Positions 2,701 through 37,965 of a stretch of DNA of 37,965 nt are shown one piece after another; positions within the stretch are counted from its first letter, which is position 1, and each line of letters starts with the position of its first letter. The translations under genes and the position numbers were made by a program. The notes under the pieces were generated by a model that worked only from the letters and a program-made list of their open reading frames with translations, ran no database searches and had not been told where the DNA came from. The DNA comes from a virus. The stretch is taken from the IMG/VR virus record IMGVR_UViG_3300029876_000020, positions 1 to 37,965 of that record. One strand, given 5' to 3'.

Positions 2701-2721
2701 GTGTCCACTGTGGACACTTTT
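2701..2721 (+). terminator. GTGTCCA-CTG-TGGACAC hairpin plus T-run (hairpin family copy A)
   Basis: 7-bp stem, 3-nt loop, then TTTTAATTT. It abuts the stop codon of the convergent lipoprotein gene. Confidence 0.5.
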
Positions 2722-6310: not shown

Positions 6311-6329
6311 AATTTTGGAGGATACCACA

Positions 6330-6581
6330 ATGAAAAAACTTGCTGTTACTTACACTTACCACGAACACCTTACTTCTCTGAAAGCATTGGAATCTGTGGC
6401 TTATTTTGAAGTTGAGGATGATGTGGCCGCCGATATGCTGGCCGTCGAAAAGCCTTTCGGATTTGTCGCCGTAAAAAATACCCACCAAAGCCACATCGCA
6501 ATGATCGTGTATTGGATCGCGGCGGCACACAACCATTATATCCTCAGAGGTGACAAGATTTCGGATGTTACGGAAGAGTAA
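6330..6581 (+). CDS. Hypothetical protein (83 aa)
   Basis: ATG 6330 preceded by GGAGGA. Confidence 0.6.
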   Translation: MKKLAVTYTYHEHLTSLKALESVAYFEVEDDVAADMLAVEKPFGFVAVKNTHQSHIAMIVYWIAAAHNHYILRGDKISDVTEE

Positions 6582-9723: not shown

Positions 9724-10656
9724 ATGAAAAACACGACGAAAAAACAGAGCTACATCCTCGTCCTCGACTGGATGGTGGACAAGTACCACCTCAAGGGCAA
9801 TGAGCTGCTGGCCTACGCTCTGATCTATGGCTTCTCGCAGGATGGCGACAGCGAATACAAGGGCAGTTTTAGCTACCTGACCCGCTGGCTGGGCGCTGAT
9901 CGTGCAACAATAATCCGGGTGCTCAAGCGTCTGGAAAGCAAGGGACTGATCTCCAAACGGCAGGAACTTGTAGCCGGTCAGATGGTCAATCGGTACGTCG
10001 CCGAGGTGCCCGAAGAGGTCAAGGAGACCGTCGAGAGCAAGGCCGACGCACCCGAAAATCCGGCGGAATCTCACCCGCCCGACCAGTTGCAAAACGCCAC
10101 TAGTCGCAAAATGCCACTAGTGGCAAAATGCGACGGGAACCAGTGGCAAAACGCCACGGGGGGTAGTGGCAAAACGCCACCCAGTAATACTACTGGGTAT
10201 ACTACTGGGTATACTACTCCTTCGTGCGCGCGAGGCGCACAGGGGGGCGGGCCTACCCCGAAGGATGTTTTCGCGGAGTACGCCGGAGCGGACAAGCCTC
10301 TGCTGGAAGCCCTGACGAAGTTCGACGCCTACCGGGCATCCCGGCGGGGCAAGGTCTGGGACGCTCAGGCAGCGCGGGCCGTCTGCGACAAACTGACCCA
10401 TCTGGCGGATGAATCAAAAACGACACAACGCACAGAGTACATGATCGCCAGCATCATGCAGAGCATCGAGGCCGGATGGAGCGTCCTCGACCACCCAAAG
10501 AGCTGGGGGCCCGGCAACCGGGTCACAGTGCGGGCGGCTCGCGGAATCGTTGACCGGCCAGAACCCAGCGGGAACGATCCTTTTGCAAATCGGTCGTTTG
10601 AGCAGACCATTGCCAGACTCCGCAAACATAAAACGTCGAATCAATCCCAAACATAA
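9724..10656 (+). CDS. Replication initiator / replisome organizer (winged-helix N-terminus, DnaD-like C-terminus)
   Basis: N-terminal LLAYALIYGFSQDG...YLTRWLGADRATIIRVLKRLESKGLI; C-terminal ...MIASIMQSIEAGWSVL. Iterons are embedded in the middle of the gene, as with lambda O. Confidence 0.65.
   Translation: MKNTTKKQSYILVLDWMVDKYHLKGNELLAYALIYGFSQDGDSEYKGSFSYLTRWLGADRATIIRVLKRLESKGLISKRQELVAGQMVNRYVAEVPEEVKETVESKADAPENPAESHPPDQLQNATSRKMPLVAKCDGNQWQNATGGSGKTPPSNTTGYTTGYTTPSCARGAQGGGPTPKDVFAEYAGADKPLLEALTKFDAYRASRRGKVWDAQAARAVCDKLTHLADESKTTQRTEYMIASIMQSIEAGWSVLDHPKSWGPGNRVTVRAARGIVDRPEPSGNDPFANRSFEQTIARLRKHKTSNQSQT
10085..10180 (+). repeat. Five ~17-bp iterons, consensus tAGTGGCAAAAcGCCAC (candidate origin of replication)
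   Basis: Copies start at 10085, 10101, 10118, 10141 and 10164. The last two are identical over AGTGGCAAAACGCCAC. Confidence 0.7.
10187..10218 (+). repeat. 12-bp tandem repeat ATACTACTGGGT, ~2.7 copies, adjacent to the iterons
   Basis: Seen directly in the sequence. It translates as TTGYTTGYTT within the linker of the replication protein. Confidence 0.85.
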
Positions 10657-10678
10657 CAAAACCGGAGGAGAACCCACA

Positions 10679-11476
10679 ATGAGAAACATGGCTACCATCG
10701 CGATCATCAACCTCAAGGGCGGCGTCGGCAAGTCCGTCACCGCTTGCAATCTGGCCTGTATCCTGTCCGGCATCTACGCCCGGCGGGTGCTGGTCATGGA
10801 TCTGGACAAACAGGCAAACACCACCAAGTTTTTTGAGCGTGTCCAGAGTGGACACCAGAAGACCATCGCCGACGTGCTGACGCTGGACGCAAAGCTCAGC
10901 GATGTCATCGTACATACCGGATGGCCGGACATCGACCTCGCGCCCAGCAATATGCAGTTGCTGCTCGCCAATCAGAGCGTGATGTTTGATCTGGCCCGTC
11001 GGCGTGAGGACCGCATCCGGCGGGCGCTGGCACCCTACCGAACGGAATACGACTACTGCATTATCGACTGCCCGCCCGATATCGACATGGCCACCATCAA
11101 CGCGCTGGTCGAGGCCGATTGGGTCATCATCCCGGTGGACTGCGACGAGTGGGCGCTGGATGGCCTCAGCGAGATCATGGAACAGATCCGGGCCGTCAAG
11201 GCCGAGTATAACGAGCGATTGGAGATCATGGGCACACTGGCCACCAAGTACGACCGGGGCCGTTACTCCACCAAGACCATCAACCAGCTCGTCAATCTGG
11301 ATATCCCGACCTTCCGGGCCGATGATGGCACGGTGCTGCACATCGACAGCAGCGTCCGGGTCAAGGAATCCAAGGCGTTCCACCGGCCTCTGTACCAGTA
11401 CGCGCCGAAATGTAGGCCAGCCGCGCAGTATAAGATGCTGGCGGAGAGAGTGATGCAGATTGCGGAGGGAAAGTGA
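10679..11476 (+). CDS. parA: ParA/Soj-family partition ATPase
   Basis: Deviant Walker A NLKGGVGKSVTACNLA and the MDLDKQAN motif. RBS GGAGGAG. Confidence 0.9.
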   Translation: MRNMATIAIINLKGGVGKSVTACNLACILSGIYARRVLVMDLDKQANTTKFFERVQSGHQKTIADVLTLDAKLSDVIVHTGWPDIDLAPSNMQLLLANQSVMFDLARRREDRIRRALAPYRTEYDYCIIDCPPDIDMATINALVEADWVIIPVDCDEWALDGLSEIMEQIRAVKAEYNERLEIMGTLATKYDRGRYSTKTINQLVNLDIPTFRADDGTVLHIDSSVRVKESKAFHRPLYQYAPKCRPAAQYKMLAERVMQIAEGK

Positions 11477-11477
11477 A

Positions 11478-11897
11478 ATGAAAAGTGATTTGGATATCAA
11501 AGGCGCAAAAGCATTGATAGAGTTGATAGTTCCTCTTGTAGACAAACTGGAAAATTACATCAATAATTTGCGTGAAATTTCTGAAACAGTCGAAATCCCT
11601 GAAGGATGGAATGGTGCAGATGACCCTCCAGATTTGAACCACCACAGTTGGGTTGGTGATGACGGAGAGTTCATTGAATTTTGGAGCAGCGACCCAGTAC
11701 GAGCCAATGTTGTGGGTTTTGACACACAGCCGGCAATATATTTTAGAACAACACGAGATTCTGGTTGGAAAAGCGTCAATGGGATCAAAATAGAAGTTTT
11801 TTCTTGGAGTTGTTACCCCGGACTTGAAACAAAGACGTACAGAGAGTCAATGCATGAGTCGATAAAGAAAGCGGCACAGGAAGGAACGAAAAAATGA
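11478..11897 (+). CDS. Hypothetical protein (139 aa) inserted between parA and parB
   Basis: Starts 1 nt after the parA stop. ATGA overlap with the parB start. Clearly more AT-rich than either flanking gene. Confidence 0.6.
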   Translation: MKSDLDIKGAKALIELIVPLVDKLENYINNLREISETVEIPEGWNGADDPPDLNHHSWVGDDGEFIEFWSSDPVRANVVGFDTQPAIYFRTTRDSGWKSVNGIKIEVFSWSCYPGLETKTYRESMHESIKKAAQEGTKK

Positions 11898-13009
11898 GCA
11901 CCGGATTATTACATAGCCTTCTGGACGCACAGCCGTCCACCCCGGCGGGGGAGCCGCCGCTGAAAGTGGTCATGATCGACCGCAAAAACATCATCGTCAA
12001 CCCGGACAACCACAAAATCTACGTCATCGGGGATGTCTCCCGGCTGAAAGAGGATATCAAGACCAACGGCATCCGGCAGCCGCTGGAAGTGGTCGATCTG
12101 GAGGATGGCAATTACAAGCTGATCGGCGGCGAGCGGCGTCTGACCGCTTGCGAGGAGCTGGCCAGAGAGGGCGATACCCGCTTCAACGCGCTGCCCTGCG
12201 TCATCCTCAAGCTCAAGAATGACGATGACGACAAGATCGCGCTCATCACGGCCAACGCCACCGCCCGCGAGCTGACCGACGGCGAACGTCTGGCACAGTA
12301 TGAGGCCCTCAAGGAGATTCTGACGCGCCGCAAGAAAAACGGCCAGCTCGAAGGCAAGGTGCGGGATGAGCTGTGCAGAATTCTCGGCCTGAGCGCGGGG
12401 GCGGCGGCCCGGCTGAATGCGATCTCGGAAAACTGCGGCGATGATACAAAGCGGGAACTGCGGGCAGGGGAGATCACCTTGATGGGCGCATATCGGCGGG
12501 CACAAGAGATTATTGCGGCGCGGATGGCACAGCAGGAAGCAGCCAAAGCCCCGAAACCGGATAAACCGGTGTACGAAAAGCCTGTTGTTTTTGATTGCCC
12601 ACCCAAAGCGGCGGAAACGATACCGCAAAACCCAGATTATGACGAGTGGAACCTTCCACCGGAGTGCCGGGCAGCCGTGGAAAAGGCACACCGGGAATCG
12701 GCCCAGAAGCAGGAAGAACAGCAGCGCGGAAAGAAGACACTGCGGTTGCTGGCAGAAAAAACGCTGAAAGAAGATGCGCCGTGGGAACTGGCATGGGAAG
12801 ATGTTCAGTTTGGGCTTGAATATTACAAACAGCCTCTTCCCGGCGGGGCGAAGCTTTGGAAACGTGTGGATGAAACCAGAAGAGAAGCCGGTCAGACCTG
12901 CGATGATTATGCGATCATTTTGCAAGATAACAAGTTTTATACCTGTGGATGGATTTCGTTTTATTCCGGGATCACTGACCTGCTGACACAATATTTTGAG
13001 TTGAAATAA
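11894..13009 (+). CDS. parB: ParB-family protein (N-terminal ParB/Srx domain plus HTH, long C-terminal extension)
   Basis: IRQPLEVV...YKLIGGERRLTACEEL (GERRxRA-like box), followed by the HTH region LCRILGLSAGAAARLNAIS. Confidence 0.85.
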   Translation: MSTGLLHSLLDAQPSTPAGEPPLKVVMIDRKNIIVNPDNHKIYVIGDVSRLKEDIKTNGIRQPLEVVDLEDGNYKLIGGERRLTACEELAREGDTRFNALPCVILKLKNDDDDKIALITANATARELTDGERLAQYEALKEILTRRKKNGQLEGKVRDELCRILGLSAGAAARLNAISENCGDDTKRELRAGEITLMGAYRRAQEIIAARMAQQEAAKAPKPDKPVYEKPVVFDCPPKAAETIPQNPDYDEWNLPPECRAAVEKAHRESAQKQEEQQRGKKTLRLLAEKTLKEDAPWELAWEDVQFGLEYYKQPLPGGAKLWKRVDETRREAGQTCDDYAIILQDNKFYTCGWISFYSGITDLLTQYFELK

Positions 13010-13021
13010 GGAGGAACCACA

Positions 13022-13474
13022 ATGACGCCGCTGAAACCGAGAGAGTTACGGAAGCTGTATGCCATGCCTTACGACATCGAGAAGCGCCAGCGGCGCATTG
13101 AACAGTTGGAGGCGCTGCAATCCGATGGACCACAGAGTGCTTCCGATGTGGTCAAGTCTTCCAGCGGCGAGGGAAATGCCTGTATCCTGAGCCATGCGAC
13201 CGTGACGGGTACGGATGCCTCTTTTACCCGGCGGGAAGATGAGATCAGGCGGCTCAAGGAGATCAACGCCGACCAAAAGGCAAAATACCTGTACGGCCAG
13301 CGGCTCATTGAGAGCTGCGACGACTGCGAGCTCCGGGCCTTGCTGACGGCGATCTGTTCACAGGGAAAGAAGCCGCAGGATGTGGCCGTGGAGCTCATGG
13401 AGCAGGGCGTGGATATCGGGTCAGAGGCCATTCGTCGGCGAGTCGAACGGTGGATCAACCAGAATGCGAGGTAA
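13022..13474 (+). CDS. Candidate late-gene transcriptional activator (sigma region-4 / RinA-ArpU-like by size, position and C-terminal HTH)
   Basis: 150 aa. C-terminal LRALLTAICSQGKKPQDVAVELMEQGVDIGSEAIRRRVERW. It is the last GC-rich gene before the late promoter. Confidence 0.4.
   Translation: MTPLKPRELRKLYAMPYDIEKRQRRIEQLEALQSDGPQSASDVVKSSSGEGNACILSHATVTGTDASFTRREDEIRRLKEINADQKAKYLYGQRLIESCDDCELRALLTAICSQGKKPQDVAVELMEQGVDIGSEAIRRRVERWINQNAR
13438..13472 (+). repeat. 35-bp gene-junction repeat, copy 1 (32/35 identical to 14513..14547)
   Basis: GCGAGTCGAACGGTGgATCAAccAGAATGCGAGGT. Contains the 3' end of the 13022 gene and a GAGGT RBS. Confidence 0.9.
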
Positions 13475-13478
13475 GATT

Positions 13479-14162
13479 TTGGACAGAGAAGCATACATGA
13501 ATCTTATACGAGTACTCAATGCTGGGATGATTTCTGCGGAGCAATTTCGAGACGCAATATTCTTAGACGAACAAAAAAATATGAATTCTCAATCCGTTAA
13601 TCGAGAGCAAAATGCGGATATGTTTCGTTACGCAAATATTTGGCAAATGGATGAGGAACAGCGTGAACGCCACAAAAATGCAGTTGTGTCAAATCCGCTG
13701 CATTACGAAATGCAAAATAAAAACCCATGCGAGATTTGTGTAAAAGCCGAAAAACTTTATGCAAACAATCGGCTTGAGGAAATTGTTTGCGCTGATCATA
13801 CCTGCCCAATTTGGCTGAGAGACCATCCAAAGAGCAAGAAAAAAGTCAAAGTGCTGAGCGTTTCCGAATGGAAAGAAAAAATCGCAAAAGAACAAAAACA
13901 TCAAAATCCATGCGCCGGATGTAAATTCAGAAAATATCACGATTGGGCAGAACCTACGTGGATAGGGTTTTCGGAACACTACTATGATTGCGAAAATCCG
14001 GCGTGCCCAATGTGGAAAAGGCTCTGGTGGAGGAAAAACGACGATGGCACCGCTCTTCTGGACCAAGCACCCATTAAGCTGAAACGGAAGGTTCAGCACG
14101 TAGCATACGAGTTTGTGAAAAAACTCGATGACATCATCTACATGATTTTAGAGGAGGAGTAA
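13479..14162 (+). CDS. Cys-rich protein with two NPCxxC...CxxxxCPxW modules
   Basis: TTG start 6 nt after GAGGT (an in-frame ATG at 13464 is an alternative). NPCEICV...CADHTCPIW and NPCAGCK...CENPACPMW. AT-rich. Confidence 0.55.
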   Translation: MDREAYMNLIRVLNAGMISAEQFRDAIFLDEQKNMNSQSVNREQNADMFRYANIWQMDEEQRERHKNAVVSNPLHYEMQNKNPCEICVKAEKLYANNRLEEIVCADHTCPIWLRDHPKSKKKVKVLSVSEWKEKIAKEQKHQNPCAGCKFRKYHDWAEPTWIGFSEHYYDCENPACPMWKRLWWRKNDDGTALLDQAPIKLKRKVQHVAYEFVKKLDDIIYMILEEE

Positions 14163-14163
14163 A

Positions 14164-14406
14164 ATGAAACTGATTATTGCGAACAACGGTAAAGCGACTA
14201 TCAATGCGGATTATATTGTGAGCATGAAATGCTTATATACCAAACAACTTTCCACGGGCGAAGAAAAATATTCCATTGTAGCTGACACGATAAACGATAA
14301 AATTTATGTTATTCAAGATGGTCTCACGGAAAACGAAGCGACTCGACGCCTTGAAAAAATTGCAAACTATATTGTCTCCGATGAAAGCTTTGTAATTGCG
14401 TTTTGA
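14164..14406 (+). CDS. Hypothetical protein (80 aa)
   Basis: ORF starting 1 nt after the previous stop, with GGAGGAG upstream. AT-rich. Confidence 0.55.
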   Translation: MKLIIANNGKATINADYIVSMKCLYTKQLSTGEEKYSIVADTINDKIYVIQDGLTENEATRRLEKIANYIVSDESFVIAF

Positions 14407-14512
14407 GAAAACAACGGGGTTGATAGTTGCATTTGCAAAAAAGAAAAAACAAATTGTTTGATGTGCGATAATTACGGCGGCGGTGGAAAATGAAAAATGT
14501 CCGCCGCTGTAT

Positions 14513-14547
14513 GCGAGTCGAACGGTGAATCAATTAGAATGCGAGGT
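14513..14547 (+). repeat. 35-bp gene-junction repeat, copy 2
   Basis: GCGAGTCGAACGGTGaATCAAttAGAATGCGAGGT. It supplies the RBS for the 14555 gene. Confidence 0.9.
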
Positions 14548-14554
14548 GAACTGT

Positions 14555-14740
14555 ATGCGTTGCATAAACTACGAGAAGATGGAGCAACGAGTAATCTATT
14601 TGAGGGGCTACTATAATGGACTTTCAGTGGCTGAGCCAGACGAACAATTTCAAAAAATCTATGAAAAAATTTTTGAACAGTTGATGTGGGCAATGGGAGA
14701 TCAAATTGATTGCGCTCAAGATAATAACGACAAAACGTAA
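14555..14740 (+). CDS. Hypothetical protein (61 aa)
   Basis: ATG 6 nt after GAGGTG. The upstream part of ORF 14483..14740 is the degenerate junction repeat. Confidence 0.5.
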   Translation: MRCINYEKMEQRVIYLRGYYNGLSVAEPDEQFQKIYEKIFEQLMWAMGDQIDCAQDNNDKT

Positions 14741-14746
14741 ATCCCG

Positions 14747-14827
14747 TGTCCGATTTGTCCGGAATGTCCGATTTGTCCGGAATGTCCGATTTGTCCGGAA
14801 TGTCCGATTTGTCCGGAATGTCCGTTT
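14747..14827 (+). repeat. Nine phased 9-bp units, each starting TGTCCG (18-bp unit TGTCCGATTTGTCCGGAA x4, plus TGTCCGTTT)
   Basis: Perfect tandem array. It is intergenic and ends 6 bp before the extended -10. Confidence 0.95.
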
Positions 14828-14833
14828 TTGATG

Positions 14834-14842
14834 TGGTATAAT
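14834..14842 (+). promoter_or_regulatory. Candidate late promoter: extended -10 TGGTATAAT with no -35
   Basis: TGnTATAAT consensus. The sequence at the -35 position is the last repeat unit. The genes downstream are the tRNAs and the packaging/structural genes. Confidence 0.55.
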
Positions 14843-14848
14843 GAAAAT

Positions 14849-14877
14849 GCGGTTACTGGGTGAGACACCCAGACCGC
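14849..14877 (+). promoter_or_regulatory. Strong stem-loop at the predicted 5' end of the late transcript
   Basis: GCGG-tta-CTGGGTG-aga-CACCCAG-a-CCGC. Confidence 0.5.
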
Positions 14878-15004
14878 TCATTGTGGATTCGAAAACTCCC
14901 GGCGGGAAGCATAGCACGGCGATGGAACGACGTGTTCAATGGGACATGCGCCGTCCGCTCCAAAACCCAGCGGCGCACGACACGATAAAACATTCACCCG
15001 GCGG

Positions 15005-15021
15005 GTGTCCATTGTGGACAC
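15005..15021 (+). other. GTGTCCA-TTG-TGGACAC hairpin (family copy B)
   Basis: Same 7-bp stem as at 2701, 20050 and 23126. It is preceded by TCACCCGGCGG, which also precedes copy A. There is no T-run. Confidence 0.5.
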
Positions 15022-15033
15022 ATTATACGATAT

Positions 15034-15179
15034 GCTGCCATAGCTTAGTGGGCTAGAGCGCTTTGCATCTGGTACATGCAAGGTAACATTGGCGATACAC
15101 ACCACCCATGGCTCTGCGTTTAGCCAGCGCAGAAGTTAATGCGGTGTGGGCGTTGGTTCAAATCCAACTGGCAGCACCA
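15034..15179 (+). tRNA. tRNA-like gene: Thr(GGU)-type anticodon loop, 8-bp anticodon stem, ~67-nt insertion at the variable-loop position, encoded CCA
   Basis: Acceptor stem GCTGCCA/TGGCAGC is perfect. D-arm GCTT-AGTGGGCTA-GAGC. Anticodon loop CTGGTAC (U33, A37). T-arm GTTGG-TTCAAAT-CCAAC. Ends in ACCA. Total length is 146 nt rather than ~76. Confidence 0.55.
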
Positions 15180-15243
15180 GACGCGCACCCTTTGAGGGGG
15201 CGGCGCGAATAGCGGGGCATCCGGCCGCGAAAGTTCTGGATGC

Positions 15244-15276
15244 AGCGGCCCTTCCGCAAAGGGGCCGCTTATTTTT
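15244..15276 (+). terminator. Intrinsic terminator between the two tRNA genes
   Basis: AGCGGCCC / GGGCCGCT 8-bp stem followed by TTATTTTT. Confidence 0.6.
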
Positions 15277-15278
15277 AT

Positions 15279-15351
15279 GCATCCGTAGCTCAGTCGGCAG
15301 AGCAGCGGGCTTTTAATCCGTGGGCCGCGAGTTCGAATCTCGCCGGACGCA
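15279..15351 (+). tRNA. tRNA-Lys (UUU)
   Basis: 73-nt cloverleaf. D-arm GCTC-AGTCGGCA-GAGC. Anticodon loop CTTTTAA. T-arm GCGAG-TTCGAAT-CTCGC. One A-C mismatch at 3:70. No encoded CCA. Confidence 0.85.
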
Positions 15352-15365
15352 TTGAGGTGACAGCA

Positions 15366-15722
15366 ATGACCGAATCCTTTTTACAATGGCTTCGCGGTCT
15401 GATTGCGGCGGGTGACGTGCATCCGTTCTACTGTTCTTCGCAGTGGGTTCGGCTGTCGCATGAGGTGCTGGACATGGACAAGCACGAGTGCCAGATCTGC
15501 AAGCAGCGCGGGCGATACCGGCGCGCTGACCTTGTGCACCATGTCAACCACGTCAAGGACGCACCGGACAAGGCGCTTGATATCTGGTATCAGGATGCCG
15601 GAGGCAACCAACAGCGCAACCTTATCAGTGTATGCAAGGACTGCCACGAGACAGTCTGCCACCCGGAGCGGCTGCGCAAGTGTAGGGAAGACAAACCACT
15701 AACAAAAGAGAGGTGGGATTAA
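15366..15722 (+). CDS. HNH endonuclease (packaging-associated)
   Basis: CQIC...DLVHHVNHV...NLISVCKDCHETVCH. Start moved to ATG 15366 after GAGGTGA, because the longer ORF reads through tRNA-Lys. It lies upstream of terS/terL. Confidence 0.88.
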   Translation: MTESFLQWLRGLIAAGDVHPFYCSSQWVRLSHEVLDMDKHECQICKQRGRYRRADLVHHVNHVKDAPDKALDIWYQDAGGNQQRNLISVCKDCHETVCHPERLRKCREDKPLTKERWD

Positions 15723-15723
15723 T

Positions 15724-15933
15724 ATGGCAAATGTCGCGTATAAAGGAAAAGTTCCGGTTGCAATCACTATGAACGAGCCTGAAACCAGAAGATGCTATGA
15801 TGCTTCTGTTGGCTGGGTCACTGTGTATTTTGCAAAGCCGGACAAACAGATGGATGATAAAATGGCAACGGAATTCGTGAGAAAGCAATTGGAAATTGGG
15901 GTAGAAGAGGCTATGAAGTCATACAAGAGATGA
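15724..15933 (+). CDS. Hypothetical protein (69 aa)
   Basis: Starts 1 nt after the HNH stop. Confidence 0.5.
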   Translation: MANVAYKGKVPVAITMNEPETRRCYDASVGWVTVYFAKPDKQMDDKMATEFVRKQLEIGVEEAMKSYKR

Positions 15934-16075
15934 CCCACCCCCCTCCCGGAAAAACGGCCCAGACCCGGCCCTGCCTTACTCGTGGTGTCCCCTGCCTGTC
16001 GAGATTTTCTCCTGCGCACGCGCACGCGCGGGAATCATGGTCAATTTGCACAAAAACGGAAGAAAGGACAACGCA

Positions 16076-16432
16076 ATGGCAAAACGGATGAAAACGGTTC
16101 CGACCTGTGAAAAATACCGGCAGGAATTGCAGGAAATCGAAGACGCCGCGAAGGCCGCGAACTGCGATACAAACTTTTTGTATCGCACTACGCTCGATCG
16201 GTACGTTACACAGCTTGATCTTCTGACCAATGCGCAGGACGACATGAACAAAAACGGACTGACGGTCAGGAAGATCACGCCGAGAGGGGCGGAGGTCGAA
16301 GTGGCAAATCCGGCGATCCAAATCTATAACCAGACGGCCAGTGCCGCGAACTCCACCGTTTCGACGCTGCTGCGCATTGTCCAGACCTTCAAGTTTATGG
16401 CCGCTAAGGCCGATGAGGACGATGAGCTGTAA
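16076..16432 (+). CDS. terS: Terminase small subunit (P27-family-like)
   Basis: Lies directly upstream of terL. Motif ...NGLTVRKITPRGAEVEVANPAIQIYNQ.... RBS GAAAGGA. Confidence 0.7.
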   Translation: MAKRMKTVPTCEKYRQELQEIEDAAKAANCDTNFLYRTTLDRYVTQLDLLTNAQDDMNKNGLTVRKITPRGAEVEVANPAIQIYNQTASAANSTVSTLLRIVQTFKFMAAKADEDDEL

Positions 16433-18092
16433 CATTCCCCCGGAGATTTTGGAGTATATCGAGCAGGTGGAGGCCGACCAACCCCGCGCCTGTAAAGAGC
16501 AGCACGCTCTTGCTGCTCTGATCCGGCGTATTTTTCAAACAGAAGATATTTACGTGGATACCGAGCGAATGAGGAAATATTTCCGACTCGCCCGGTATTT
16601 TCCGTATGACCAGCTTTTTCCGTGGCAGACGTTTGCGCTGGGGCTGTGGTTGTGCACCTACCGCGCAGACCGCACCACCCCCCGCTTCAAAACATTATTT
16701 GCCATGGTGGGCCGTGGCGCGGGCAAGGACGGCGTGATCGCAGTCTCTTCCGCTGCCCTCATCAGCCCATACAACCCGGTGCCTCACTACAATGTGGACA
16801 TCTGCGCCAACAATGAGGAACAAGCCGTCACCCCCGTCAAGGACATTGTCGAAGCGCTGGAAAACCCGAAGTGGGAAGCGAAGCTATCAAAATACTACTA
16901 CCACACAAAGGAGATCCTGCGCGGTCGAAAAAACCTTGGCGAAGTCAAGGGCCGCACCAACAACCCGAAAGGGCGCGACGGTATGCGCTCCGGTGCGGTC
17001 ATCTTTAACGAAGTTCACCAATATCAGAATTACGACAACATCAAAGTCTTCGTGACCGGTCAAGGCAAAGTTGCCGAGCCGCGCGTGGGCTTTTTTACGT
17101 CCAACGGAGACGTCAGCGACGGCCCGCTGGACGACTATCTTGCCCGCGGACGCCGCATCCTGTTCGAGGGTGAAGCGGATGAGGGTTTCCTGCCGTTCAT
17201 TTGCTGCCTGAACTCCAAAGATCAGGTGCACGATGAAAACAATTGGTGCATGGCGAACCCATCGCTCCCGTATCTTCCGCACCTGATGCAGGAAATTCGG
17301 GACGAATACCGAGACTGGAAGGAGCGTCCGGAGCAGAACGGCGATTTTATCACGAAGCGGATGGGCATTCGAGAGGGCGCAAAGGAAATCACCGTGACAG
17401 ACTACGAAAATATCAAGGCCACCAACAAGCCCCTCCCTGATCTGAGCGGGTGGAACTGCACCGTCGGCATCGACTACGCCGAACTGAACGACTGGGCGGC
17501 GGTCGATCTGCACTTCCGGCGTGGGGATCAGCGCTATGATATCAACCACGCATGGATATGCGCCAACAGCCGCACGCTGCCGCGCATCAAGGCCCCATGG
17601 AAAACATGGTGCGAGATGGGCTGCTGCACCTATGTGGACGATGTGAGCATCTCACCTTATCTGCTGACGGATTACATCCGGGAAGCAGGACGGAAGTACA
17701 ACATCAAGAAGCTGGCGCTGGATAATTTCCGCTACACCATGATGGCCGAGGCGCTGCAAAGCATCGGATTCGACGCCAAGGACAAGGCTCGCATCAAGCT
17801 GATCCGGCCCAGCGACATCATGCAGGTCGATCCGGTCATTCAAGACTGCTTCGACCGCGGCCTTTTTACATGGGGCGACTCCCCACATCTGCGCTGGGCC
17901 GTCAACAACACGAAACGTGTCCGCAGCAGTCGAAGCCAAGGCGTTGATACCGGTAATTTTATCTATGCAAAAATTGAAGCAAAGGGCCGGAAGACCGACC
18001 CGTTTATGGCCCTTGTGGCCGCCATGGCCATTGAGGGAGAGCTGGGCACCGGTCAGGTGCAGCTCCCGAAAATCGGAGCAATCTACTGGTAA
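16413..18092 (+). CDS. terL: Terminase large subunit
   Basis: Walker A FAMVGRGAGKDGV. ~560 aa. The start is uncertain (ATG 16413 or 16422) and overlaps the end of terS. Confidence 0.9.
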   Translation: MRTMSCNIPPEILEYIEQVEADQPRACKEQHALAALIRRIFQTEDIYVDTERMRKYFRLARYFPYDQLFPWQTFALGLWLCTYRADRTTPRFKTLFAMVGRGAGKDGVIAVSSAALISPYNPVPHYNVDICANNEEQAVTPVKDIVEALENPKWEAKLSKYYYHTKEILRGRKNLGEVKGRTNNPKGRDGMRSGAVIFNEVHQYQNYDNIKVFVTGQGKVAEPRVGFFTSNGDVSDGPLDDYLARGRRILFEGEADEGFLPFICCLNSKDQVHDENNWCMANPSLPYLPHLMQEIRDEYRDWKERPEQNGDFITKRMGIREGAKEITVTDYENIKATNKPLPDLSGWNCTVGIDYAELNDWAAVDLHFRRGDQRYDINHAWICANSRTLPRIKAPWKTWCEMGCCTYVDDVSISPYLLTDYIREAGRKYNIKKLALDNFRYTMMAEALQSIGFDAKDKARIKLIRPSDIMQVDPVIQDCFDRGLFTWGDSPHLRWAVNNTKRVRSSRSQGVDTGNFIYAKIEAKGRKTDPFMALVAAMAIEGELGTGQVQLPKIGAIYW

Positions 18093-20044: not shown

Positions 20045-20074
20045 AAGCCGTGTCCACCGTGGACACGGCTTTTT
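20045..20074 (+). terminator. Strong intrinsic terminator between the protease and capsid genes (hairpin family copy C)
   Basis: AAGCCGTGTCCA-CCG-TGGACACGGCTT: perfect 12-bp stem, then TTTT. Confidence 0.75.
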
Positions 20075-23120: not shown

Positions 23121-23157
23121 GGAAGGTGTCCACAGTGGACACCTTCCTATTTTTTTA
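23121..23157 (+). terminator. Strong intrinsic terminator upstream of the major tail gene (hairpin family copy D)
   Basis: GGAAGGTGTCCA-CAG-TGGACACCTTCC: perfect 12-bp stem, then TATTTTTTT. Confidence 0.75.
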
Positions 23158-33924: not shown

Positions 33925-33994
33925 AAAAATCCCCTGCTTTGCCGAAGCCCTGCGTTCCACGCGAGGTACTTTGTAAGCGAAGCGGGGGATTTTT
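33924..33994. terminator. Bidirectional terminator between convergent genes
   Basis: AAAAATCCCC (33925-33934) / GGGGATTTTT (33985-33994), with an inner GCTT..AAGC extension. Confidence 0.6.
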
Positions 33995-37807: not shown

Positions 37808-37965
37808 GCAATTCAAAATCAACACAAAAAAGCGCATGACTGCTAAAAATCCAGCAATCATGCGCTTTTTCCTATAATTGCGCCAGCAGGAGTCGAACCT
37901 TTTGCGCATATCGTCTTTTCGTTATTTTATTGTTTTTGACTACTTCTTGACTACTTTTATTTATC
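37807..37965. repeat. Direct terminal repeat, copy 2 (identical to 1..159)
   Basis: Base-for-base identity. Confidence 0.95.

Follow-up and report, generated by a model that had tools for sequence, protein, structure and literature searches.

What is a strictly phased series of short repeats doing directly upstream of the late genes of a phage? The question is raised by the IMG/VR virus record IMGVR_UViG_3300029876_000020, of which the whole stretch of 37,965 nt (hereafter the window) was analyzed. The window is a temperate siphophage-like element, and at its early/late boundary nine 9-bp repeats with a TGTCCG core run to within 6 bp of a -10 sequence. The original prediction, made from the sequence alone, was that these repeats are binding sites that replace the -35 element of an activator-dependent late promoter. 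Two genes, 13022..13474 and 14555..14740, were put forward as encoding the activator, and a centromere-like array served by ParA/ParB was named as the alternative. Our analysis supports the promoter reading, on account of the fixed register of the array, its linkage to one gene, a protein-DNA covariation and the match to the Ltr/Alt late activators. We consider it probable that the locus is an activator-dependent late promoter of the Ltr/Alt type, in which the array would be the target of the 150-aa product of 13022..13474 (the 13022 protein).

Positions 14747-14827 read (TGTCCGATT TGTCCGGAA) four times and then TGTCCGTTT, which gives nine units of 9 bp. The TGTCCG cores start at 14747, 14756, 14765, 14774, 14783, 14792, 14801, 14810 and 14819, and the 3-bp spacers between them alternate between ATT and GAA four times, the final one being TTT. 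Tandem Repeats Finder (TRF) reports the array with a period of 18, 4.6 copies, 98% matches and a score of 157. The exact 9-bp phase that had been claimed is confirmed. The hexamer occurs 41 times in the window, compared to 20.7 ± 5.1 times in shuffled sequences, and the array supplies 9 of the 41. A degenerate scan of both strands of the 38-kb window (nGnnCGnnn, at least three phased units) found no second phased array; the uniqueness of the array within the window fits one single late promoter.

A gap of 6 bp (TTGATG, 14828-14833) separates the array from TGGTATAAT (14834-14842). The sequence TGTG-G-TATAAT at 14832-14842 is a complete Gram-positive "-16 TRTG" extended -10. As predicted, it has no -35 hexamer: the six bases at the corresponding place, 17 bp upstream of the -10, read CGGAAT, and a two-hexamer sigma-70 scan makes no promoter call at 14832-14842. 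From the position 6 to 8 nt past the -10 and from the onset of conservation in the leader, we infer that late transcription starts at 14848-14850. If +1 is at about 14849, the core centers run in steps of 9 bp from about -99.5 and -90.5 to -36.5 and -27.5, and the last repeat is positioned between the -35 and -10 positions.

We then considered 22 informative related loci from gut Clostridiales/Lachnospiraceae phages (designated by L numbers), which were collected first by scanning viral contigs and then by retrieval guided by the protein. In a first loose scan (TGTCCGN3 repeated three times), only about 10 of 117 stretches were relevant, and the rest were mostly in-frame coding repeats of unrelated viruses. 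All 22 loci carry 9-bp-phased nGnnCG cores, and in each of them the distance from the start of the last core to the TG of TGnTA(T/A)AAT is exactly 15 nt. The number of copies ranges from 3 to 9 while this register remains unchanged. Copy-number variation among related phages had been proposed as a check, and it is indeed seen even where the 13022 homologues are 98-99% identical (six units in L118, seven in L129 and nine in the window). The spacers also vary freely (ATT, GAA, AAA, GTT, GAT and TTT), and a few arrays contain a single 10-bp link (L030, L005 and L145). Most relatives keep the extended -10 in the form T(A/G)TG-n-TA(T/A)AAT, and each array is followed by a conserved structured leader, tRNA genes, HNH, terS and terL. 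Conservation resumes at the predicted start and runs on through the leader of about 185 nt. Together with the fixed register to the -10, this is what is expected of a promoter-coupled element.

The relatives come from human-gut metagenomes and from Clostridiales/Lachnospiraceae metagenome-assembled genomes (MAGs); a scan of MAG contigs gave two matches only and no additional arrays. Neither megablast of positions 13000-16500 nor tblastn with the 13022 protein revealed a similar cultured phage among 50,697 GenBank phages. A reading of the array as a coding repeat was also considered and rejected, as the array follows a stop codon and is crossed only by unsupported open reading frames (ORFs) of 41-97 aa. 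The 10-bp links of the relatives, which would break any reading frame, rule it out.

Which protein could act on this array? A gene of the 13022 family lies upstream in every locus that has an array. In six loci (L119, L120, L143, L144, L135 and L130), the array begins 0 to 37 nt past the stop codon of this gene, and in the cluster representative P0047 the ORF reads through into the array. The association extends to distant homologues: in L135 (46% protein identity), a series of four TGTCCG units begins 4 nt past the stop codon, and L139, at 36% identity, combines three TGTTCG-type units past the stop codon with a different terminase type (Terminase_2/Terminase_3). In the window, the array is displaced from the gene by 1,272 bp of nonconserved sequence with three small or unknown ORFs (13380, 14164 and 14483). 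Two further loci were uninformative: in L138 a terminator and convergent genes, but no array, come after the family gene, and the contig of L140 ends too soon. The 13022 gene is thus supported as the candidate activator by its obligate upstream linkage and by the covariation described below. The second candidate was not borne out. The product of 14555-14740 (or 14483-14740) has 62-85 aa, belongs to a PHROG of unknown function and was rejected because it is acidic (pI 4.5), occurs in one relative only (L012) and has no DNA-binding signature.

The repeat core itself varies with the protein. Residue 139, which belongs to the motif EAIR-x-RV-RW in the last predicted helix of the 13022 family, tracks the core sequence. 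An arginine (lysine in L135) accompanies TGTCCG in ten loci whose proteins are 46-100% identical, and a cysteine accompanies CGACCG (L119, L120, L143 and L144). A serine is found with TGCACG/TGACCG cores (TG[AC][AC]CG; L124-L128) and an asparagine with TGAGCG/TGCCCG/TGATCG (L141). The covariation is based on about four independent changes of residue 139. Loci with 1.0-1.4 kb between gene and array (window, L129, L124-128 and L141) follow the pattern as well, which hence does not merely reflect a shared recombination block. Two loci are particularly informative. L119 is a mosaic in which residues 1-99 of the activator are 100% identical to those of the window and the C-terminal 51 residues are 85% identical, and here the core is changed; residues 1-215 of its ParB (ParB_N and the central region) are 98-99% identical to those of the window, yet the core is CGACCG and not TGTCCG. 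Conversely, L135 has an unrelated 474-aa ParB_N protein, yet an identical TGTCCG core. These comparisons indicate that repeat specificity goes with the C-terminal helix of the 13022 family rather than with ParB. Tested in this way by covariation, the specificity of the family would reside in its C-terminal part.

The 13022 protein has a pI of 7.6 and belongs to a family whose members measure 140-157 aa, with pI values of 5.8-9.0 among close relatives and 5.6-11.8 among distant ones. The family is narrow: there are 127 close homologues, and 1.84 billion proteins yield only 45 representatives at 50% identity. The protein obtained no Pfam, PHROG or NCBIfam assignment above threshold. In the AlphaFold2 (AF2) model (pLDDT 86.7), an N-terminal helical hairpin (residues 12-34 and 66-97) is combined with a strongly conserved beta-hairpin (residues 40-63) with invariant D42, K45, G49, G51, N52, C54 and H58. 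It is followed by a C-terminal three-helix helix-turn-helix (HTH) domain (residues 102-148), in the last helix of which residue 139 is located.

Searching viral models with Foldseek gave repeated matches to phage proteins of the same size annotated as DUF1492, Sigma-70 region 4 or ECF sigma; for the full-length model, the E values against those annotated "Sigma70" or "DUF1492" were 4e-4 to 5e-2. Additionally, distant family members have weak, sub-threshold matches to Sigma70_r4_2 (8/32) and TIGR02937 (ECF; 7/32). The isolated C-terminal domain (pLDDT 90.5) superimposes on region 4 of ECF sigma factors (6dv9_F, 3hug, 2h27 and 3vfz) with TM scores of 0.61-0.66 and root mean square deviations of 1.6-2.0 Å, with all E values being >1, and the HTH domains of StbA, Fur and ArdK match it equally well. 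The models are thus consistent with a C-terminal HTH resembling that of phage DUF1492 and sigma-70 region 4 proteins. The label sigma-region-4-like is therefore tentative: for this 55-residue HTH none of the matches is significant, and other HTHs score similarly. Other comparisons were negative. The family profile retrieved only one spurious collagen-adhesin match from the PDB sequences, and Foldseek of the full-length model against the PDB returned coiled-coil look-alikes (prefoldin and V-ATPase stalks), none of them significant. By hhalign, there was no significant match to 80alpha RinA (probability 0.1) or TP901-1 Alt (probability 0.15).

Similar arrangements are found outside this lineage. 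The unrelated contigs L093 and L016 encode 150-aa proteins with sigma-r4/GerE-like HTHs, which gave no significant hhalign match to the family profile. In both, 9-bp-phased TGTCCG arrays overlap the 3' end of the gene (5592-5627 in L093 and 570-605 in L016) and are followed by an extended -10 or by terS. These two contigs provide independent support for the pairing of this type of protein with this type of array. In L083, likewise unrelated, a 9-bp-phased TGTCCG array at 6319-6381 also overlaps the 3' end of such a 150-aa regulator gene, but is oriented opposite to the gene. Terminase genes lie downstream of the arrays in all three IMG/VR contigs. This suggests that the TGTCCG word with 9-bp spacing is a recurrent solution for late activators.

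From these data, a mechanism can be proposed for the activator-dependent late promoter. The 13022 protein would be expressed from the early/replication operon, and its C-terminal sigma-region-4-like HTH would contact the TGTCCG cores head to tail, one copy per 9 bp, with the helical N-terminal part probably providing cooperative binding. The two promoter-proximal copies, at about -36.5 and -27.5, would substitute for the -35 element and recruit or stabilize the host sigma-A RNA polymerase at TRTG-n-TATAAT. Binding would thereby activate transcription rather than affect RNA polymerase in some other way. Transcription would proceed from about 14849 through the leader, the tRNA genes, HNH, terS, terL and the structural genes. 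The distal copies would raise occupancy cooperatively. With only the last copy held in register to the -10, the copy number (3 to 9) would be free to vary.

On B-DNA, successive proteins bound every 9 bp would be turned by about -51 degrees, and a long array would thus imply a helical or wrapped complex. A wrapped or filamentous complex is plausible from the 9-bp spacing. A bolder version, which we regard as possible but rather doubtful, is that the protein forms a head-to-tail helical filament on the array. The proximal end would act as a surrogate -35, the copy number would be an evolvable setting of cooperativity or threshold (a "timer" of the early-to-late switch), and the same complex might make the polymerase resistant to the conserved leader terminator. 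This version is based on the phasing of 9 bp instead of 10.5 bp and on the freely varying copy number. If true, Ltr-type activation and Q-type antitermination would be combined in one system, and its recognition code would be as simple as one residue and two bases.

Several features of the locus weigh against an activator-dependent promoter. By Pfam, PHROG and hhalign against RinA and Alt, the 13022 protein belongs neither to a defined Ltr family nor to Alt/DUF722, and its pI is below the value of >8 typical of Ltr proteins. The consensus promoter could be active without an activator, and a conserved terminator-like hairpin before the first late protein gene means that control could be at elongation and not at initiation. 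Genes for ParA and ParB_N, too, are found upstream throughout this lineage and, where gene and array abut, the covariation could partly reflect physical linkage. As the family resembles the Ltr/Alt activators in position, architecture and specificity without sequence membership, we file it as a new family that would work like an Ltr/Alt activator and not as a member of RinA, ArpU, LtrA-C or Alt. Control at elongation is the essence of a Q-like antitermination model, in which the extended -10 would be constitutive and the 13022 protein would load from the array and render the polymerase resistant to the terminator at 15244-15269, or in which the leader RNA would be put-like. Such a model would account for a regulator gene just upstream of a strong consensus promoter, for a last repeat between the -35 and -10 positions, for the conserved structured leader and for the conserved terminator-like hairpin and T-run before HNH/terS (window, L122 and L145); moreover, tRNA genes occupy the same position in lambdoid late leaders. 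We nevertheless find it unlikely. The protein has no Pfam match to antiterminator Q families, no -10-like pause element was seen when the first 30 transcribed bases were read, and up to nine tandem sites are unlike known Q-binding elements, whereas a sigma-r4/DUF1492-like fold with repeats after the gene matches the Ltr activators.

The centromere named in the original prediction fares worse and, in our estimation, is very improbable. The array would be a parS-like site bound by the ParB_N protein (11894-13009) and moved by ParA (10550-11476), with the promoter overlap being a by-product or serving silencing. Both par genes are indeed conserved upstream in the whole lineage, phased direct repeats overlapping promoters are known from StbA/stbS and TubR/tubC (bioRxiv 10.1101/2022.04.29.490116), and the StbA DNA-binding domain is the second-best, nonsignificant PDB match of the isolated HTH model. 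However, the core does not track ParB in L119 and L135, and the exact register of the array is to the -10 of the late genes and not to the par genes. Its repeats are direct, whereas the usual target of an HTH-type ParB is a palindrome. A better candidate for parS is a 17-bp palindrome, one of whose five copies falls within parA. An integrase and att-like repeats are also part of the element. We likewise see very little chance that the array is the operator of a repressor, a phage protein that would occlude the strong extended -10 and keep the late genes off until its removal. The proximal units do overlap the -35/spacer region of a consensus -16/-10 promoter, and stbDR is an example of a direct-repeat array that works as an operator (bioRxiv 10.1101/2022.04.29.490116). 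But the gene of the linked protein belongs to the lytic early/replication operon and is placed there like that of a late activator (PMC3753634), and a repressor made at that time would block the late genes when they are needed. No protein of the lysogeny module shows linkage to the array. Terminases can bind to repeats upstream of their genes, and the array might accordingly be a packaging site (pac or cosB-like) for the small terminase, or else a set of replication iterons, but we give these possibilities hardly any credence. terS follows 1.2 kb (window) to 2.7 kb (L143) downstream of the array, the array stays with the 13022-family gene when the terminase changes from Terminase_4/HNH to Terminase_2/Terminase_3 (L139), and origin-like iterons are found elsewhere, at 10085-10218 in the replication-initiator gene. 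Furthermore, neither possibility explains the fixed register to the -10.

The region downstream of the promoter is highly structured (Table 1). It had been described as a stem-loop, two tRNA genes and the packaging and structural operon. The stem-loop (14849-14877), the tRNA-Lys and the series HNH, terS, terL and portal are all present, the portal gene being downstream of terL, while the "second tRNA" turned out to be an atypical tRNA-like element called by Rfam only. The leader (14849-15033) matches no Rfam family even at permissive thresholds. Its invariant stretches are CCCGGCGGGAAnCATAG, CTCAATGGG and GCGCCGTCCGCTyCAAAAyCCAGCGGCGC, and the segment between two CCCGGCGGG copies, which is missing in L120 and L147, looks like an optional module. 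The tRNA-like gene has canonical acceptor, D and T arms; an 84-nt structured insert replaces the anticodon/variable region, for which the model expects 15 nt. ARAGORN made no call for 15034-15176. The putative anticodon loop is CTGGTAC (GGT) in the window, CTGATAC (GAT) in L119 and a variant in L145, and other relatives have an ordinary tRNA-Met, Trp, Ile or Thr at this position. The terminator-like hairpin at 15244-15269 is placed between the leader/tRNA-like element and tRNA-Lys/HNH/terS, and equivalent GC-rich hairpins with TATTTT(T)ATG on their 3' side are found in L122 (5666-5686) and L145 (6186-6211). If this hairpin does terminate transcription, late expression would need read-through or antitermination. 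The true start of the HNH gene is probably near 15365, past the tRNA.

A resemblance of the repeat to a GTGTCCA hairpin family had also been noted. This family is real: GTGTCCA-NNN-TGGACAC occurs in five perfect copies in the window (2701-2717, 10839-10855, 15005-15021, 20050-20066 and 23126-23142), compared to 0.07 expected, and is found in 26/26 related loci but in 0/122 unrelated ones. Its link to the array, however, amounts to a 5-nt resemblance. One copy (10839-10855) lies inside the parA ORF and another (15005-15021) at the end of the late leader. The palindrome could be parS for the ParB_N protein, or it could represent an RNA hairpin family for processing or stability.

Table 1. Positions of the main features in the 37,965-nt window
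Feature	Position	Strand	Basis or remark
Integrase	151-1290	minus	
Replication initiator gene	9724-10656		internal iterons at 10085-10218
ParA-type ATPase	10550..11476	+	
ParB_N-domain protein	11894..13009	+	directly 5' of the 13022 gene
Proposed activator gene	13022..13474	+	150 aa
Proposed binding array, nine units (6-bp core TGTCCG and 3-bp spacer ATT/GAA/TTT)	14747..14827	+	sequence, TRF, scans, arrays in relatives
Extended -10 (TGTG, G, TATAAT at 14837-14842), without -35	14832..14842	+	sequence; conserved in 22 loci
Predicted late transcription start	14848..14850	+	inferred from position and leader conservation
Structured 5' leader of the late transcript, ~185 nt	14849..15033	+	5' hairpin 14849-14877, internal covarying hairpins
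17-bp palindrome GTGTCCA-TTG-TGGACAC, leader end	15005..15021	.	
tRNA-like gene, atypical, 143 nt	15034..15176 (CCA to 15179)	+	Rfam call only
HNH endonuclease ORF, first protein gene of the late unit	15240..15722	+	PF01844, E = 2.3e-5
Intrinsic-terminator-like hairpin, 10 pairs (7 GC), then TATTTTTATG	15244..15269	+	
tRNA-Lys (UUU)	15278..15352	+	
Small terminase subunit, Terminase_4	16037..16432	+	
Large terminase subunit	16341..18092	+	

The order SSB, Rep, ParA, ParB_N, 13022 family, accessory ORFs (where present), HNH, terS and terL is shared by the window and its relatives. Among the accessory ORFs of the window, 13380-14162 encodes 260 aa with two CxxC...CP(I/M)W motifs. A similar insert is found in L131 and L132 and is absent from most relatives, and it appears to be an accessory gene inserted at the gene-array junction. 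Att-like terminal direct repeats (TTGACTACTTC) are present at 130-150 and 37936-37956. The ParA/ParB_N pair is kept throughout the lineage although the element also has an integrase and these repeats; phages of this lineage may alternate between integrated and episomal states, or ParAB may serve another role. Within the replication-initiator gene, three short tandem iteron families (17, 23 and 12 bp) and an overlapping palindrome at 10085-10218 likely represent the origin of replication. Near the right end of the prophage, positions 33928-33991 match the Rfam DUF3800-VIII RNA (68.8 bits, E = 3.7e-11).

An activator-dependent late promoter at this locus would give a function, late-gene activation, to a protein family without Pfam or PHROG annotation. 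It would also locate the late promoter of abundant temperate phages that carry this family in human-gut Clostridiales/Lachnospiraceae. The loci form a clean natural series for how sigma-region-4-like activators read DNA, with one recognition-helix residue set against the middle of the core and with 3 to 9 sites. Array and activator could become an orthogonal, tunable phage-inducible promoter in gut Firmicutes, and phased nGnnCG repeats followed by TRTG-n-TATAAT could serve as an annotation mark of the early/late boundary in metagenomic phage contigs.

How does this arrangement compare to known systems? With lambda Q/PR'/tR' it shares a regulator gene directly upstream of the late promoter, the order of promoter, leader, terminator and late genes, and tRNA genes within the leader region; it differs in having no Q-family homology, no evident sigma-dependent pause element and a multi-copy array in place of a single Q-binding element. 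In the middle promoters of T4, which depend on MotA/AsiA, a sigma-70-type -10 is likewise combined with an activator box near -30 that replaces the -35. The T4 system, however, uses a single 9-bp MotA box, needs AsiA as a co-factor and involves unrelated proteins, whereas the array described here is in tandem.

StbA-stbS of R388, TubR-tubC and the omega heptads of pSM19035 resemble our locus in their short head-to-tail repeats, small HTH or ribbon-helix-helix protein, filament-like complex and promoter overlap (bioRxiv 10.1101/2022.04.29.490116). StbA/stbS has 9-bp repeats with a 2-bp spacer in 2x5 copies, TubR/tubC likewise has phased direct repeats, and helical or wrapped complexes are known for both (bioRxiv 10.1101/2022.04.29.490116). 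Unlike the present array, which is separated from parB by 1.7 kb on the downstream side and keeps a fixed register to the leader/tRNA/HNH/terminase promoter, those arrays have periods of 11, 12 or 7 bp, and they segregate or, as operators, control their own par or maintenance operon.

TP901-1 is closer. Its activator Alt (ORF29, DUF722) is encoded directly upstream of the late promoter, and a long leader with tRNA-like sequence precedes terS. According to the account cited in PMC3152322, Alt recognizes a series of repeats at -76 to -32. In the TP901-1 locus (L149, 2487-2560), the repeats GACACGAAA and GGCACGAAA follow the alt stop codon about 11 bp apart; they resemble the TGCACGAAA and CGCACGAAA units of the S139-type arrays (L124-L128). 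These repeats are fewer and more widely spaced than those of our array, which spans about -100 to about -27. The proteins also differ: Alt matches DUF722 at 4e-72, whereas the 13022 protein has no DUF722 match and its family is unlike DUF722 by both profile search and hhalign.

The best agreement is with the Ltr superfamily of Quiles-Puchalt et al., which comprises RinA, ArpU, LtrA (Sigma70_r4), LtrB (DUF1492) and LtrC (PMC3753634). Ltr proteins have about 130 aa, are basic (pI >8) and bind direct repeats immediately distal to their own gene; they are necessary and sufficient for transcription of terS and the late operon, and their C-terminal part sets specificity (PMC3753634). The 13022 family shares the small size (150 aa here), the repeats directly past the gene (0-37 nt after the stop codon in six loci), the single target upstream of the late operon and the C-terminal specificity, seen here as the covariation of residue 139 with the core. 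Its predicted sigma-region-4-like HTH would be a further parallel to LtrA, LtrB and RinA, and 80alpha RinA itself matches both DUF1492 and Sigma70_r4. In 80alpha (L134, 2222-2245), TTTTTGAT follows the last RinA repeat, as it does the last unit here. On the other hand, the sequence of the 13022 protein matches none of the five families significantly, the pI of the protein is about 7.6, and in the window 1.27 kb of extra ORFs separate gene and array. Ltr targets consist of 2-4 repeats of 7 nt, compared to 3-9 strictly phased units of 9 bp here, and RinA needs sequences >155 bp upstream of the mapped start, whereas the present array enters the core promoter (about -27.5). The standout features of the locus are thus up to nine sites in strict 9-bp phase, their reach into the -35/spacer region and their copy-number polymorphism. 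Late promoters built from an activator and repeats are known from Gram-positive temperate phages, and what is new here is the unannotated protein family.

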